From assembly GCA_027317865.1 (NCBI GenBank), contig DAHVQG010000004.1, forward strand, positions 128,001 through 192,000: 64,000 nt of DNA, given 5' to 3'. A program made the translations under genes and the position numbers. Position 1 is the first letter of the stretch; every line of letters starts with the position of its first letter. The notes under the pieces are model-generated. The model saw only the letters and a list, made by a program, of their open reading frames with translations. It was not told where the DNA came from and did not search any database. Below are positions 32,746 through 58,551 of the stretch, one piece after another. The DNA is from Bdellovibrionales bacterium. GTDB taxonomy: Bacteria; Bdellovibrionota; Bdellovibrionia; Bdellovibrionales; UBA1609.

Positions 32746-33354
32746 TTATTGCTTAGCCGTTGAACTTTTTTTAGCTGACGGGACTGGTGCGGCATCTGCC
32801 GCGGACTGAATCGCGATGTAATAATCCGTCGTCATCGATTGGGGACCTTGTACTGTATACACCTCAAGCGACGCCACAGCCGTTTTCAAATGATGAACAC
32901 GCGCGTATTTGCGCATTCGCGGATAAACTTTGAACGGACCGATCGAGGGCGACCCGTCAAATGATGCCCAAAGGTATCGTCCCGGTAAGCGCCTTTCTAT
33001 TTTGTACGGTCCCGTCGCGACAATTTTATCTAAATCTTTGGGGGCAAACCTTGAGTCAACCACGCATCCCACTCGGCTTTGCAACCGGCGCTGATCCGTC
33101 GTTTCAGGATTATCCAGGTATTCTCCAAAAGTCTTCTCGCACGTCAAGTTATGTTCCGTGGCCCACTGTTGAACTTTATCCATGAGTGGAGCGACTTCAT
33201 TGTACGGCCCGACGTGGGTTGTATATAGAAGAGTCATCGCCGGCGCCATCTTCATTCCGACCTTCGGAACTTTATACGCTCCCAAATGCACGTAAACGGC
33301 AATGGCAAATGTGACGATCATTGCGACGAAAACAAGAAAAATTGTTTTTATCAA
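32746..33354 (-). CDS. Membrane-anchored GyrI-like small-molecule-binding protein
   Basis: N-terminal TM helix; HVGPY, FGEYLDNP, LEVY. Confidence 0.7.
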   Translation of the reverse strand: MIKTIFLVFVAMIVTFAIAVYVHLGAYKVPKVGMKMAPAMTLLYTTHVGPYNEVAPLMDKVQQWATEHNLTCEKTFGEYLDNPETTDQRRLQSRVGCVVDSRFAPKDLDKIVATGPYKIERRLPGRYLWASFDGSPSIGPFKVYPRMRKYARVHHLKTAVASLEVYTVQGPQSMTTDYYIAIQSAADAAPVPSAKKSSTAKQ

Positions 33355-33384: not shown

Positions 33385-35817
33385 CTAATGCTTTTGTTCA
33401 GCACGTAGCAAATTTAACGCCGATCCCGCCTTGAACCATTTGATTTGTTCCGCATTGAATGTGTGACTGAGTTTCACACGTTCGTTGCTGCCGTCAACAT
33501 GGTGAATAACGAGCGTCAGCTGCTCACCGGGCGCAAAACGTTTTAAACCTTCAATGGTCACGCGATCATCTTCACGGATTCTATCGTAGTCGTTCGGGTT
33601 GACGAATGTAAGCGCCAGCATCCCCTGTTTTTTCAAATTTGTTTCATGAATGCGCGCAAAGCTCTTAGCGATTACGGCACGCCCGCCCAAAAAACGCGGA
33701 CTCATCGCTGCGTGCTCACGGCTCGAACCTTCGCCGTAATTATCGTCGCCGATAATAACCCAATTTTGCTTCTTAGCTTTGTAGTCGCGCGCAATTTTTG
33801 CGAACTCAACATCGTGATCGCCAGTTAAAATGTTCGTACCTTTGCCAATCGCACCGCCAAACGCGTTAGTCGCCCCTAAAAGCATGTTGTCTGATATGTT
33901 ATCGAGGTGCCCGCGATACGTGAGCCATTTACCCGCCGGGCTGATGTGATCCGTTGTACATTTGCCTTTGGCTTTACAAAGTACGAGTGCCTCTTTTACG
34001 TCCTCACCATCCCATTTCGCAAAAGGATCAAGTAACTGTAGCCGGTTCGAAGCCGGATTCACTTTCACTTCGACGCTCGAACCTTTTGGCGCCTGATAAC
34101 CGGTCGGATCAGAAACAAACCCGCGATCAGGAAGTTCAGGAGCTGACGGAGGCTCGAACTTTACAGATTTTCCGGATGGTGTGGTGAGTTCATCGGTCAC
34201 GGGGTTAAAATCAAGACGGCCGGCAATTCCGAGCGCCATTGTAGTTTCTGGCGAGGCGATAAAAGATAGCGTTTCGGGATTGGCATCGTTTCTACCACGA
34301 AAATTGCGGTTAAAACTGTTCACAATTGTATTTACCTGTCCTTTGGCGATGTCTTTACGTTGCCACTGCCCGATGCACGGGCCGCACGCATTGGCGAGCA
34401 CAGTCGCACCCGCGTCGGCGAGCACTTTCATTTGGCCGTCGCGCTCGATGGTCTTTTTGATCTGCGACGAACCCGGAGAAACCATAAATTGTTGGGGCAT
34501 ATTAAAACCATACCGAAGCGCCTGCCGTGCCACATGCGTCGCGCGTCCAATATCTTCGTATGAAGAATTCGTGCACGAGCCAATCAGCGCCGCCGATAGC
34601 CGCACCGGCCAATTATTTTTTTCAGCCGCCGCTTTCATTTCTGAAATCGAGTGCGCGGCATCGGGCGAGTGGGGGCCGACAATTTGCGGTTCAAGAGTCG
34701 AAAGATCGATTTCTACAACTTCGTCGTAAAACCGGTGAGGGTCGCTCCAAACTTCCTTGTCGGCCGTCAAAAGTTCACGATTTTTTTCTGCCAAAGAGGC
34801 CAGCTCCGAGCGCTTCGTAGCCCTTAAATAAGTCGCCATGCGCGAATCAAACGGAAACACCGAACAGGTCGCCCCGAGTTCAGCGCCCATATTGGTGATT
34901 GTCCCTTTACCAGTACAACTAATCGACTCACATCCTTCGCCAAAATATTCGATTATTTTATTCGTTCCGCCTTTTACAGTCAGAATCCCGCAAAGTTTCA
35001 AAATCACATCTTTGGCCGATGTCCAGCCCTGCAGTTTTCCGGTAAGATGAACGCCAACAATATTTGGATTTTTTACTTCCCACGGCAAACCCGCCATGAC
35101 GTCTGATGCATCAGCACCACCAACACCACAGGCGCACATGCCAAGGCCACCGGCGTTGGGAGTATGTGAATCGGTCCCAATCATCAACCCACCCGGAAAC
35201 GCGTAATTTTCAAGCACGACCTGATGGATGATTCCCGCGCCGGGCCTCCAAAATCCAATGTTGTAATGAGATGCCACCGATTGCAAAAAGTCGTAAACTT
35301 CTTTATTTTCTTGCATCGCGGCCTTCATGTCCGGCTCCATGCCTTCGTAGGCGCGAATTAAGTGATCGCAGTGAACCGTGCTCGGCACGGCCGCTTCGTT
35401 TCGGCCAGCCAACATAAACTGTAGAAGCGCCATTTGCGCAGTTGCATCTTGCATTGCCACGCGATCCGGTTCGAGAAGCAAAAAACTTTTACCGCGCGTA
35501 AGGTCTTGCTCCTTAGGATTGGCCAGGTGCCCAAAAAGAATTTTTTCGGTCAACGTCATCGGGCGATCAAGCCGGGCGCGCACGATCCCAAGCTGTTCTC
35601 TCGTCTTATGGTAAACATTGGATACCATTTCGGGGGTGGTATCGATATTTGATGTTTTTCGCGCCAACTTCTTTTTTTGCGCCTTTTTCTTCGTTACATT
35701 TCTTTTCGCAGATTTTCTTGCAACTTTTTTTATAGTCTTTTTAGCGGCCTTTTTAGTGGCCATTTTGGCGGCTTTTTTCGGTGTTCTTTTTTTTGTCGAT
35801 TTTTTCCGTTTTGCCAT
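33385..35817 (-). CDS. Aconitate hydratase (mitochondrial-type) with Lys-rich N-terminal extension
   Basis: [63 protein letters not shown] before ATG 35817. Confidence 0.96.
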
Positions 35818-36030
35818 AGTACGGCTCCTTAATTGAGTTTGAACGGCCCTATGTTAGGCCCTGGTTGACTAATCCGCAAGCCGAAGAGGCCCGTTGCAAC
35901 GCGCACGCGAGGTCTATCGGCAAAAGAGCGCTGCATGGCGACCAGGCCTAAGGTCAGTTGGATTCATGAAACTGGACATGTAAACTGGTCGCAATTCTAA
36001 AATATGACATGGTTATAGAAAGGGAAAATT

Positions 36031-36582
36031 ATGAAATTGAAAATGGCAACCGCAGTTATTGTGGGTCTGACATTCGCTGGCTCGCTATTCGCGACTCAGG
36101 CGAAGGCGGATTTGCTTGTTGAACCGTTTGCCGGTTACGAGTTCGGCAATATTAAACAGGGCAATTCGTCAGACGGTCTCAGTGGCGCTAACTACGGGGC
36201 GCGTCTTGGTTATGAAAGCCTCGGCTTTATGATTGGCGGCGAATATGCATTGGGCGCATTACGGGGCAGCCCGAGTGGCGGGTCTAACTACAATGTGTCT
36301 ACAACAGATGTAGGAATTTTCGCGGGTTATAACTTCCCCGTTCTTTTGCGCGTTTACGGCACTTACTATCCGCTTTCTACGGCGACCGACGATAACATTC
36401 CCGGAGGTGATCTCAATGGCACGGGTTACCGGGTTGGTATTGGTTTTACGCCTCTACCTTTTATTACGGTTGCCGTCGAAGTGGTTGATCGCGACTATAC
36501 GAAACAAGGCAGTAGCAGTTTAACACATAACGTGAAAACGAATTCGACGCTTATTACTGTCACGTTGCCGTTCACGCTTTGA
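36031..36582 (+). CDS. Small outer-membrane beta-barrel protein
   Basis: Signal peptide (AKA/D), alternating beta pattern GARLGY, GIFAGY, GYRVGIGF, aromatic near the C-terminus. Confidence 0.8.
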   Translation: MKLKMATAVIVGLTFAGSLFATQAKADLLVEPFAGYEFGNIKQGNSSDGLSGANYGARLGYESLGFMIGGEYALGALRGSPSGGSNYNVSTTDVGIFAGYNFPVLLRVYGTYYPLSTATDDNIPGGDLNGTGYRVGIGFTPLPFITVAVEVVDRDYTKQGSSSLTHNVKTNSTLITVTLPFTL

Positions 36583-36710: not shown

Positions 36711-37463
36711 CTATCCGCCAATTTGCGAAGATGGCGTCGCGTTTGAAGGCGCGGTCAAAATCGGCGCCTGCGCTTGGGTCTGCAGCGATTTGTCGACATC
36801 TAATCTGTACCCCGTGCCGATTACCGCCTCGATTGTTACACCGGTTCCGGCTAATTTTTTTCGCAAATTTGAAATGTGAACGTCAACGACTCGATCGGTA
36901 ACCGAAATCGAGTGGCCCCAAACTCGATCCAAAATTTCAGGTCGGGAGAAAATCTTATTTTGGGCTCCCGCGAGAAGTCTGAAAATGCGAAACTCCAAAA
37001 AAGTTAGGTCGATCATCTGCCCGGTGTCGTTTTTAAATACCCGTTGCTCCTGCAAATTACAGACAAGGCGACCAAGACGCATGATCGAAAGCTGATTGGC
37101 ATTAGCCGCAAATTTTCTAAGTTTTGCATCGACGCGCAATTTCAGTTCGTGGGCATCAAACGGTTTAACTACATAATCATCGGCGCCGAGCGAAAACGCG
37201 CTGGCTTTGCTGGCAAGATCGCTGCGGCCGGTGAGAAATATAATCTGGGCACCGCGAAATTTATCTGAATTGCTCGCCATAAATTCAAATGCGTTGCCAT
37301 CTGGTAATTCAACATCCAACAATACCAGCGAAAATTGAGTTCGAGCTAACAGGTCTTGGGCTTGTTTTAAAGTCGTCGCAAACAAGTAATCGTACCCCTG
37401 CAATATGCTTTCAAGTATTAGCAGGATTTCGGGAGCGTCTTCCACGCAAAGTATCTTATACAT
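36711..37463 (-). CDS. OmpR/PhoB-family response regulator
   Basis: VED, LLDVELPDG, GADDYVVKPF, winged helix DRVVDVHISNLRKKL..VIGTGY. Confidence 0.93.
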   Translation of the reverse strand: MYKILCVEDAPEILLILESILQGYDYLFATTLKQAQDLLARTQFSLVLLDVELPDGNAFEFMASNSDKFRGAQIIFLTGRSDLASKASAFSLGADDYVVKPFDAHELKLRVDAKLRKFAANANQLSIMRLGRLVCNLQEQRVFKNDTGQMIDLTFLEFRIFRLLAGAQNKIFSRPEILDRVWGHSISVTDRVVDVHISNLRKKLAGTGVTIEAVIGTGYRLDVDKSLQTQAQAPILTAPSNATPSSQIGG

Positions 37464-37639: not shown

Positions 37640-40207
37640 ATGTGGCCGAGATTTTTAAACGAATCATCTCCAAAAAAGTCCGTTTTTAAGTTTAATCACC
37701 CGGCCAAGTTTGCTCAGTCGATGATTGAAAAAACATCGACGACACGAGGGCAGTTAGAAGTCGGCTTTGTGTTGATTTGCGTTTGGGCGACAATAACTGC
37801 CGGCATTTACTATACGACCGGTTATTATTTTCCGTCACTTACCGTTATTTTTGTTTTGCTGTTCGGGATTGCATCCAATTTTGTCACCGCCGTGAGTCTC
37901 AGCCTTTTTATAAGTTTCTTTTACGATCGCATGCATCTCATGTCTTTTTTGACTTCGTCTGATTTTTTGCCGTTTGATGTCGCAACATTCGATCATATTT
38001 TGGTGATCATTATGACCGCCTGTGTGGCGGGCATTCTCGGGAGTCTCATGCGGCGCGCTCTTGTGGAGCAAACAAAGTTACGCCGGGACGCCGAAACGGC
38101 CTGGCGTGCGGCCGTAAAACAAACAAATTTACTTGCGGCAAGTGAAAGCCGTTTGCGAACACTTAACCTGACACTCGAAACCCGAGTCGCGCAGCGAACC
38201 GCCGAACTACGCGGAATTATCCGCCACTCCCCACTTGCCATTTTCACCCGAACCCTCGACGGGAGAATTAAAATTGCCAACGAAGAATTCGAGCGATTTA
38301 TCGGCAAAAACCGCGCCGAGATCATTGGCCGCATTGACAGTGAAATTTTGCCGCCTGATTTGCTCAGATTTGTTCGCGATCTCGACACCAAAGTTAAGAT
38401 GTCAAAGACTGCGTATCGATTCGAACACACGATCGAGTATATAAAAGGCGACCGGGTATTTTATTTTATCGGTTTTCCAATATTTAATCCCGCACTTGAA
38501 GTGGAAGCAATCGGCGGAATCATAAAAGACATGACGGACACACGCCGCATCGAAAAGGAAAAATCGGAACTCGTCATGCGGGAGCGCCTTGCAAATGAAG
38601 CTTCACGCTTGAAATCGGAATTTTTGGCAAACATGAGCCATGAAATTCGCACTCCTATCAATGGTATTATCGGCATGGCAAAACTTTTGTCCGAGACGGA
38701 ACTCAGCATTGAACAAAAACGCCTTCTTCGGACCGTCGAATCGTCGTCAAGTCTGTTACTTTCAATTATAAATGACATATTGGATCTTTCGAAAATCGAA
38801 GCCGGGCGGATTGAACTTGAAAATGTCACCTTTCGGCTCAAAGACCTCATTTCTGACGTCATCGAGTGCTACGAGCCGCTCATTTTCGCCAAGGGTTTGG
38901 CATTTCAAAAACCCGGTGAACTTTTTGAGAATACGTGGCTTGAGGGCGATCCCGGACGGATCCGCCAGATTCTCAATAATCTATTGAGTAATGCGCTGAA
39001 ATTTACGAGCACCGGTTCCATTATGCTTGGAGTTCAAACAGTCAAATGCGATGACGGCCAGGTCGATTTAAGATTCTCTATAACGGATACTGGAATTGGG
39101 ATTTCTCCCGAAGTACGCACTAAATTGTTTCAAAAATTCTATCAGGGTGATACTTCAACGGCTCGCAAGTTCGGCGGCACTGGTCTTGGATTAGCGATTT
39201 GTAAGCGCCTTGTGGATCTCATGGGCGGACAAATCGACGTGGCAAGTCAACCCGGTACTGGCACAACGTTTTCGTTTTTTGTCCGGGTTAAAAATATCGA
39301 AAAGTCGCAAACTGCGAGCTTTGGTGAAACTGCCAACCATGTGTTGCGTGCGTTCGATCCATCACTCCGCAAAACAAAACGAGTTTTGATCGCTGAAGAC
39401 AATCCTATTAATCAAGAAATTACGCTGCGAATGCTTGAAAAGGCGGGATATCAAGCACAAGCGGTAGCGAACGGATGCGAAGTACTCGAGTTGATCAACA
39501 ATACCCGTTTTGACCTCATTTTAATGGATTGCCAAATGCCTGAAATGGATGGCTACGATGCAACCCGCGAAATCAGGCGCAAAGGCATAAAGCTGCCCGT
39601 CATCGCGCTAACCGCATGCGCATTTAAATATGATCGCGAGAAGTGTCTAGATGCCGGCATGACTGATTTTGTCGCCAAACCGGTTACAAAAGAAGAACTC
39701 ATTCGCGTTGTGGACCGGTGGATTGCCACAAGCGCGCCGGCCGACGGACCAAATTTAAACACCGGTGAAAAAAGTTTTTCAGCGCCCCAGTTTAGCGAAA
39801 TTGAAATCTTAGATGTTTCTATGATCAGCCGACTTGAACAACTCGATAAAGAAGGCAAAAACGGTTTAGTTAAAAAGCTAATTCAAATGTATTTAACAAT
39901 GACTCCCAAAGCGGTTAATGAAATCAGAGAAGCGGTCGATAAGCCCGGACCGCAGTTACGTAAGCTCGCCCACACGTTAAAATCGAGTAGCGCGAATCTC
40001 GGAGCACGCCGAGTGGCAACGCTCCTGCAAAAAATTGAAAGCGGCGAGTTTCAAGATCACGAGTTAGCGAAAATTGTTGATACGCTCGAACGTGAAGTCG
40101 AACTTGCACAAAAAAGTCTCTTGGATGTACTCGACGGCAAGTTGGCTAACAATGCCAATGACCATACCGGCGACGACACACTTCAATGGATGGAGATCGT
40201 CCATTAG
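37640..40207 (+). CDS. Hybrid sensor histidine kinase (TM-PAS-HisKA-HATPase-REC-Hpt); start uncertain
   Basis: [45 protein letters not shown]. Confidence 0.95.
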
Positions 40208-50752: not shown

Positions 50753-50765
50753 CGTAAAAGAAAAA

Positions 50766-50882
50766 GCTGGCATCGTGCTACTCTCCCACACGGTTACCCG
50801 TGCACTACCATCGCCGCTGACGGACTTTACTTCTGAGTTCGGAATGGGATCAGGTGTTGCCCCGTCGCTATAGACACCAGCA
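50766..50882 (-). rRNA. rrf: 5S rRNA (ends approximate)
   Basis: Conserved CCCATTCCGAAC and GTGGGAGAGTAG; paired termini. Confidence 0.95.
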
Positions 50883-50972
50883 AATTTTTAAAGATCAAAA
50901 AACTAAAATTTTGGGTGGTCAATTTTCTGACCAACTCAAGTCATTCTTAGCAGGAGTAGAAATCCATTTTTT

Positions 50973-53968
<2,996 letters not shown>

Positions 53969-54090
53969 ATTGGATTTTATACCCTGCTAAGAATCACTTG
54001 AATTGATGTCCGATTTTGCAATGGACATCTACCCAAAATCTTAGTTTTTCTATCTTTCAGTTAATTTGCAAAATGCAAAAAAATAAATAC

Positions 54091-54108
54091 CTATTCAGTT
54101 TTCAAAGA
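54091..54108 (-). promoter_or_regulatory. boxA-like antitermination element in the spacer
   Basis: TCTTTGAAAACTGAATAG, identical to the leader copy at 55953-55970. Confidence 0.75.
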
Positions 54109-54141
54109 ACAATGCGTGACCGCAACCTCAACTCAGTCGGT

Positions 54142-54218
<77 letters not shown>

Positions 54219-54314
54219 CTAGTCACACTGAAGGGCTTCACTCCTTCAAAACTAAACAGCTAGTCCTGATTTTGGGTTTGACCACAGAGTTCGATTCACA
54301 TTGCTGTGAACCAA

Positions 54315-55828
<1,514 letters not shown>

Positions 55829-58475: not shown

Positions 58476-58551
<76 letters not shown>

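Follow-up and report, generated by a model that had tools for sequence, protein, structure and literature searches.

A lysine-rich, predictedly disordered N-terminal tail on the sole aconitase of a Bdellovibrionales bacterium: a candidate electrostatic tether

Several aconitases bind nucleic acids: IRP1, AcnA and AcnB of Escherichia coli and CitB of Bacillus subtilis act on mRNA, and Aco1 of yeast acts on mitochondrial DNA. In these proteins the enzyme body itself is the binding part, mostly in the apo form. Proteins of chromatin and of granules are known to be tethered by lysine-rich disordered tails, but to our knowledge no such tail is known on a core iron-sulfur (Fe-S) enzyme of the tricarboxylic acid (TCA) cycle. 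In Pseudomonas, AlgP and PhaF combine a folded part with a disordered Lys/Ala-rich domain. This domain binds DNA, its number of repeats varies, and AlgP positions polyphosphate (polyP) granules and PhaF polyhydroxyalkanoate (PHA) granules relative to the nucleoid (PMC9239181). Lys-rich disordered terminal regions of YihI and RNase R from E. coli bind polyP (PMC12345225). Here we describe an aconitase gene on a stretch of DNA of 64,000 nucleotides (nt), called the window in the following (contig DAHVQG010000004.1, positions 128,001 to 192,000), from an organism that the names on the database hits place in the Bdellovibrionales. The gene encodes a mitochondrial-type aconitase preceded by a Lys-rich tail of 57 residues. 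We hold with high confidence that this is a translated, clade-conserved and charge-selected disordered tail on the only aconitase of the cell. As to its role we lean, with less certainty, towards a non-specific electrostatic tether to polyanions.

The tail is extreme in its composition. Within residues 1–54 we counted 23 Lys, 5 Arg, 10 Ala and 5 Thr and not a single Asp or Glu, which for the basic and acidic residues is exactly the count given in the initial annotation of the window. Over codons 1–57 Lys makes up 40% and Ala 18% of the residues, Pro occurs once in 57 and acidic residues are again absent, so that the net charge amounts to +28. A hydrophobic core, a twin-arginine motif or an amphipathic pattern was not found in the tail. 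AlphaFold2, run with a 49-sequence alignment, gave residues 1–55 a predicted local distance difference test score (pLDDT) of about 30 and no secondary structure. From residue 61 onwards the pLDDT is 96, with a predicted helix at residues 62–83. In a six-frame scan of the 2.65-Mb genome, 54-residue windows with at least 28 Lys or Arg and without any acidic residue were present in two open frames only, the second one being the C-terminus of a protein of 199 amino acids (aa) on contig C8. Since only two open frames in the whole genome reach such a basic, acid-free window, we consider the tail to be beyond chance. Tandem Repeats Finder detected a 12-nt unit in the tail, encoding A-A-K-K, with 80% matches and a score of 56. 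At codon 20 (35758–35760) the window encodes Ala (MATKK) and the near-identical database representative P0001 encodes Thr (MTTKK).

When searching for relatives of the tail itself, residues 1–60 retrieved their own cluster alone (1 of 134 candidates). Pfam searched with the tail at E ≤ 1 returned no family, including no Hc2 (PF07382), and the tails of three longer relatives (P0018, P0020 and P0023) gave no H1 or Hc2 match in Pfam either. In the ESM Atlas the best score for residues 1–57 was 0.82, obtained with unnamed clusters of 21–29 aa. The nearest cluster with a family scored 0.78 and carries Hc2 on 20% of its members, which is at the level of a lead and below that of a hit. The histone-fold family PF00808 was not found in the genome. 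The original description of the tail as histone-H1-like thus holds for the composition, but not for membership in the H1 or Hc2 family.

Judged from start signals and open frames, the tail is almost certainly translated as part of the protein. The strong Shine-Dalgarno (SD) motif that had been reported before the ATG, AAGGAG, lies 7 nt upstream of it, and the 3’ end of the 16S rRNA encoded in the window (...GGATCACCTCCTTTCT) contains the matching anti-SD CCTCCT. Possible internal starts are the TTG that forms codon 51, situated 7 codons upstream of the junction of tail and core, and the Met64 ATG, situated 6 codons downstream of it. In both cases an SD at a usable distance is missing, and the sequence upstream of the Met64 ATG, accacccccgaa, contains none at all. 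The earlier statement that the junction has no start codon is therefore right insofar as no SD-backed internal start is present, but too strict in that the TTG and the ATG flank the junction. In the mRNA a 7-bp perfect inverted repeat (GATACCA ... TGGTATC, 35621–35643) is also located at this junction. Its 3’ arm includes the Met64 ATG and the scan scored it as terminator-like, on the opposite strand; it may be a chance occurrence, the flanking residues varying among the relatives.

We then considered the same gene in related organisms. It was present in six of the seven genomes of the genus (G000, G001, G002, G003, G004 and G006), and in the seventh, G005, which is 76% complete, no aconitase match was found. 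In all six loci the core is preceded by an open Lys-rich frame, an SD-like motif is located 7–9 nt before the tail ATG, and internal starts with such a motif at a usable distance are absent. This agrees with the initial expectation that the tail is probably translated. Among the best 120 database hits 20 are tailed and 100 were called tail-less. The tailed hits start with MAK or MAR (P0011 after a longer called leader), continue as Lys-rich sequence for 30–105 residues and all rejoin the core at the same place, I-E/D-T-T-P-E. The tail-less calls mostly start M-A-(K/Q/N/M)-I-E-T-T-P-E, and in 8 of 8 tail-less relatives examined an SD and an ATG are located exactly 3 codons before I-E-T-T-P. Translation from Met64 had been named as the outcome that would do away with the tail. 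Met64 is an unlikely start because the core already begins upstream of it, with the conserved IETTPE.

Two relatives, P0002 and P0010, are annotated as tail-less, and the corresponding DNA (L002 of G006 and L005 of G001) has an open Lys-rich frame. Read from this DNA, their short forms are start-call artefacts in the public annotation. Lys-rich tails are probably under-counted in public annotations, and gene callers may under-report them systematically. The 4 of 30 aconitase loci that lacked the anchor motif (L025–L028) were left out of the reading of loci. A stop or frameshift that would separate a small basic gene from the aconitase, also considered at the outset, was not seen: contigs X3 and X4, DNA from two other samples of the same study, span the entire tail with zero indels. 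Contigs X5 and X7 cover the stretch only partially.

The remainder of the protein had been described as a mitochondrial-type aconitase with intact motifs, and the comparison with models and structures bears this out. The model TIGR01340 (aconitase_mito) matched with 1077.1 bits at a cut-off of 825.35, model positions 1–745 of 745 covering residues 69–804. The AcnA model TIGR01341 reached 282.5 bits at a cut-off of 945 and the AcnB model TIGR00117 48 bits at a cut-off of 1287. Residues 72–807 aligned with residues 21–751 of the solved mitochondrial aconitase 1aco (E 2.7e-293), with cysteine and serine motifs, including GEGSSREH, being identical. Residues C415, C478, C481, H149, D151, H152, D216, H218, S698, S699 and R700 are invariant in a 49-sequence alignment (A1) and are also identical in the alignment to 1aco, while I58, T60 and T61 are near-invariant in A1. 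We take the three cysteines to be the ligands of the 4Fe-4S cluster and the Ser, His and Asp residues of these motifs to have the catalytic roles. By these matches the core is a complete and intact mitochondrial-type aconitase. It is the sole PF00330 match in a genome estimated to be 99% complete, and the tailed protein must for this reason be the working aconitase of the TCA cycle.

Across the relatives the composition of the tail is conserved and its sequence is not. The 23 distinct tails are 33–109 aa long and comprise 1498 residues, of which 39% are Lys, 17% Ala, 9% Ser and 8% Thr. Asn accounts for 1.7% and Pro for 3%, and only 3 Asp and 1 Glu occur in the entire set; the net charge ranges from +15 to +56. 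Pairwise identity between tails has a median of 0.44 compared to 0.39 for shuffled tails. The cores in the tailed clade have diverged to ~75% identity and Lys still makes up ~39% of the tails throughout. As Glu codons are one transition away from Lys codons, the near absence of Glu indicates selection against negative charge. Furthermore the tails contain many Ala codons, which are rich in GC, and few of the A-rich codons for Glu and Asn. This argues that the constraint acts on the peptide and not on an A-rich mRNA.

The survey of aconitases for basic N-terminal extensions that had been proposed with the initial annotation thus found them in 20 of the best 120 hits. At greater distance they were not observed: when the best 150 of 16315 hits were taken as representatives at 50% identity, 74 included the N-terminal part and none of these had a Lys-rich overhang. 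Overhangs of at least 15 residues were present in 23 of the 74, all of them Arg/Ser/Leu-rich and presequence-like or unrelated. A Lys-rich N-terminus was found in 0 of 10 AcnA-type aconitases of order-level relatives. In a tree of 136 cores (6 of the 120 proteins and 4 loci lacked the anchor and were left out) one clade of 28 rows with a Shimodaira-Hasegawa-like support of 99 contains 24 tailed rows and 4 rows called tail-less. Two of these 4 are start-call artefacts, as read from the DNA, and two are N-terminally short calls. Outside this clade the tailed rows are L015, in which the gene is cut by the contig end, and P0107. FastTree gave 7 changes of the tail label when the raw label was used, and the quick tree from IQ-TREE gave 3 after correction of the start calls. 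Joining L015 (p = 0.306) or P0107 (p = 0.348) to the main clade was not rejected in approximately unbiased (AU) tests, and one to three gains of the tail are possible.

As to its origin, the tail is most plausibly a low-complexity expansion that grew in frame and now separates the Met-Ala-Lys of the ancestral protein from its I-E/D-T-T-P-E. The position of the tail, the short tandem repeat and the lack of both a sequence relative and a Pfam family argue for expansion rather than gene fusion, and the 12-nt repeat is consistent with growth by slippage. A fusion with an upstream small histone-like gene was considered and rejected: in tail-less relatives the SD and ATG are found 3 codons ahead of the junction, and Met-Ala-Lys is retained in the tailed proteins. 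The initial view of the protein as a fusion of aconitase with an H1-like gene or domain has consequently been abandoned.

A scan of the genome also revealed Lys-rich terminal tails on other proteins (Table 1). One open reading frame (ORF) combines a NadD-like nucleotidyltransferase and the ribosomal silencing factor RsfS behind a Lys-rich N-terminal tail of ~40 aa. This open frame is present across most of the order and the Lys-rich tail in some genera only. The NadD N-terminus is Lys-rich in 7 of 28 loci read, among them two other genera with tails of 70 and 107 residues, as open frames with putative starts. For the Bcp-type peroxiredoxin, 10 of 16 loci read have a long Lys/Arg-rich open frame upstream of the core, again with putative starts. 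Five of these loci belong to the same genus and five to other genera, and some of the frames exceed 100 residues. The loci read are those with the anchor motif, which was missing from 14 of the 30 loci for Bcp and from 2 of the 30 for NadD. Going by these open frames, polycationic tails are a recurrent device in the order, on different proteins in different lineages. The tails on Bcp, NadD-RsfS, the SWIB protein and L21 suggest a general property of the lineage rather than a device specific to aconitase. The genome also encodes Ppk1 and Ppk2. A charge-dipole protein was noticed as well, an ORF of 147 aa without Pfam match (G000 contig C22:35260–35703, plus strand, locus L034:501–944). Its N-terminal half is strongly basic and rich in K, R, S and T, and its C-terminal half strongly acidic and rich in D and E.

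Table 1. Positions of the aconitase gene and its parts, of neighboring genes in the window, and of proteins with similar tails.
Feature	Position	Strand	Basis or remark
Whole aconitase coding sequence	33385..35817	-	810 aa; polycationic tail and mitochondrial-type aconitase; ORF list, TIGR01340
Lysine-rich tail, codons 1-57	35647..35817	-	Composition; disorder predicted
Shine-Dalgarno AAGGAG	35825..35830	-	7 nt 5’ of the tail ATG (35815..35817)
12-nt tandem repeat, 3.5 copies, coding (A-A-K-K)n in the tail	35737..35778	-	Tandem Repeats Finder
Core N-terminus I-D-T-T-P-E, codons 58-63, tail/core junction	35629..35646	-	Starts of relatives, alignment
ATG of Met64, rival internal start	35626..35628	-	Without SD upstream
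Aconitase domain PF00330, residues 91-533	34219..35547	-	Pfam E 1.5e-139, profile positions 1-463/463
Aconitase C-terminal (swivel) domain PF00694, residues 612-740	33598..33984	-	Pfam E 6.6e-40
GyrI-like small-molecule-binding protein	32746-33354	-	31 nt downstream of the aconitase gene
Divergent 183-aa protein	36031-36582	+	Signal-peptide-like start, no Pfam match
OmpR-type response regulator	36711-37463	-	
Hybrid histidine kinase	37640-40207	+	PAS, HisKA, HATPase, receiver and Hpt domains
Complete rRNA operon (16S, spacer tRNA, 23S, 5S) and further tRNA	50765-55827, 54145-54218, 58479-58551	-	Rfam
NadD-RsfS, 369-aa ORF	G000 contig C41:54275-55384 (locus L031:501-1610)	-	PF01467 residues 41-224, PF02410 residues 265-360
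Bcp-type peroxiredoxin	G000 contig C7:38291-38866 (locus L032:501-1076)	-	AhpC-TSA, residues 42-169; N-terminal Lys-rich tail ~40 aa
SWIB/MDM2-domain protein	G000 contig C3:14172-14510 (locus L033)	-	N-terminal Lys-rich tail
Ribosomal protein L21	C41:56731-57321	-	C-terminal Lys/Ala-rich extension; Pfam match
Putative ribosomal protein L17	C11:196518-197021	+	C-terminal Lys/Ala-rich extension; read from sequence

A promoter scan of the minus strand did not find a sigma-70-like site within the 213 nt that precede the aconitase gene, and a search of Rfam over the whole window gave no match near the gene.

If the tail acts as a non-specific electrostatic tether, comparable to the K/A-rich tails found in histone H1, AlgP, PhaF and HupB, a TCA enzyme with full activity would be kept on nucleoid DNA, on RNA or ribosomes, or on polyP granules. 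Given tethering, nucleic acid would be the somewhat more probable partner, with polyP retaining a substantial chance. The companion tails on L21, L17 and RsfS would point to RNA or ribosomes. A polyP scaffold would also suit the tails on aconitase and Bcp, both being proteins tied to oxidative stress. Together, the tails on aconitase, Bcp, NadD-RsfS, the SWIB protein and L21 would amount to a lineage-wide placement of proteins on polyanions and not to an aconitase-specific switch.

Several points weigh against a tether. By our own reasoning an oxidant-labile Fe-S enzyme located on DNA could promote Fenton damage, and this risk makes DNA a less likely partner than RNA or polyP. The tail matches no DNA- or RNA-binding family, the Atlas cluster bearing Hc2 (score 0.78) being a weak lead. 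Of the 120 nearest aconitases 100 are called tail-less, at least two of these being start-call artefacts, and together with the 0 of 10 AcnA-type enzymes with a tail this shows that the tail is dispensable for aconitase function. Finally, a generic physico-chemical role would account just as well for the tails on unrelated proteins.

A more far-reaching form of the tether, which we regard as unlikely, would make the polycationic tails an address label. They would gather redox-sensitive and housekeeping enzymes, namely the Fe-S aconitase, Bcp and NadD-RsfS, on a scaffold of polyP or of the compact nucleoid/ribosome mass and form a membrane-less metabolic and redox-protective compartment. The place and the activity of aconitase would then depend on how much polyP is made or how compact the nucleoid is, as states of this scaffold.

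The tail might also be translated and have no specific partner. It would then be a tolerated or mildly useful slippage expansion in A-rich Lys codons near the start, at most a solubility element or “entropic bristle”. The 12-nt repeat and the A-runs of up to 8 fit such an expansion, as do the wide variation in length and sequence and the presence of tails on unrelated proteins in scattered genera, with most related aconitases having none. The same is true for the three changes of the tail label on the tree, though a single clade remains compatible with the AU tests (p 0.31 and 0.35). The charge, however, speaks against it. Only 4 acidic residues among 1498 and a Lys content of ~39% despite the divergence of the cores indicate strong purifying selection on charge, which a bristle would not need and which neutral drift would erode. 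We consider a tail without partner to be rather unlikely.

Alternatively the selected feature could be the mRNA, either as an A-rich, weakly structured 5’ coding region that boosts initiation or through AAA runs that slow or slip ribosomes and so tune the output of aconitase. The GC content of the tail is indeed 0.36 compared to 0.51 in the core, AAA outnumbers AAG among its Lys codons by 17 to 6, and A-runs of 5–8 are present. The core, however, uses the two codons at the same ratio (34:12). Moreover GC-rich Ala codons account for 17% of the tail residues, the equally A-rich Glu (GAA) hardly occurs and Asn (AAT/AAC) is limited to 1.7%, and tails of at least 100 codons far exceed any need of an initiation effect. 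An effect on the mRNA level is therefore improbable. Even less probable is a role in targeting, or as a pro-sequence that is cleaved off, by which the enzyme would be exported, delivered into prey or brought to a membrane; the tail would then correspond in position to the mitochondrial presequence of eukaryotic aconitases. The extreme N-terminal location, the R/S/L-rich overhangs at the eukaryotic presequence site in 23 of the 74 representatives and a lineage related to predatory bacteria, by the source names of the hits, would agree with it. On the other hand the tail consists of K, A, S and T and has none of the hydrophobic, twin-arginine or amphipathic features, the protein is the only aconitase of the cell, and the cytoplasmic proteins L21 and RsfS carry similar tails. 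That the tail is untranslated, either because translation starts at Met64 or another internal codon or because errors in assembly or sequencing have merged two genes, is hardly credible. The annotations of P0002 and P0010 do start inside or after the tail. However, all 23 distinct tails (33–109 codons) are open frames, each of the 6 genus loci has its SD-like motif before the tail ATG and none usable internally, IETTPE lies upstream of Met64, and the contigs from two other samples have no indels.

A literature search, in which subscription journals were not covered, found no basic-tailed aconitase, in line with the initial remark that no such protein was known, and no description of Lys-rich tails on Bdellovibrionales enzymes. 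What is new here is the cargo, which was not expected for this otherwise known type of tether; there is evidence that the tail is under selection, and its function is a proposal. If the tails localize these enzymes, they would represent a simple and evolvable means for bacteria to arrange their metabolism spatially in the absence of membranes. It has long been proposed that aconitases connect the iron and redox state with nucleic acids, and the tailed aconitase would lend itself to testing this idea.

When comparing the tail with known polycationic regions, the likeness lies in composition. AlgP and PhaF carry proline-rich, regular KPAA repeats at the C-terminus, whereas the aconitase tail is N-terminal and located on a metabolic enzyme. 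Instead of a long tandem array of the KPAA type it contains one 12-nt unit repeated 3.5 times and a single Pro among 57 residues, and no sequence relationship to AlgP or PhaF was found. YihI and RNase R are ribosome-linked proteins, and their polyP-binding regions include acidic residues and serines as well, in contrast to the purely cationic tail of the aconitase. With the C-terminal domain of histone H1 and the chlamydial proteins Hc1 and Hc2 the tail shares the K, A and S/T composition, the disorder and the positive charge, but it matches none of their family profiles and has no globular H1 domain.

The core is alike from end to end to the eukaryotic mitochondrial aconitases (solved pig and bovine enzymes such as 1aco and 7acn), with the same two Pfam domains and identical motifs. 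At the place where these enzymes have a cleaved R/S/L-rich presequence, the protein described here has its Lys-rich tail of 57 aa. It does not belong to the IRP1/AcnA subfamily: in addition to the low TIGR01341 score, IRP1 itself (2b3x) aligned with E 2.8e-53 over residues 151–397 only. The precedents IRP1, AcnA, AcnB and CitB are thus from other aconitase subfamilies than the tailed protein. Yeast Aco1 is of the mitochondrial type, as is the enzyme in the window. In comparison with these nucleic-acid-binding aconitases, in which the enzyme body makes the contact, it would here be a separate, appended tail that binds.

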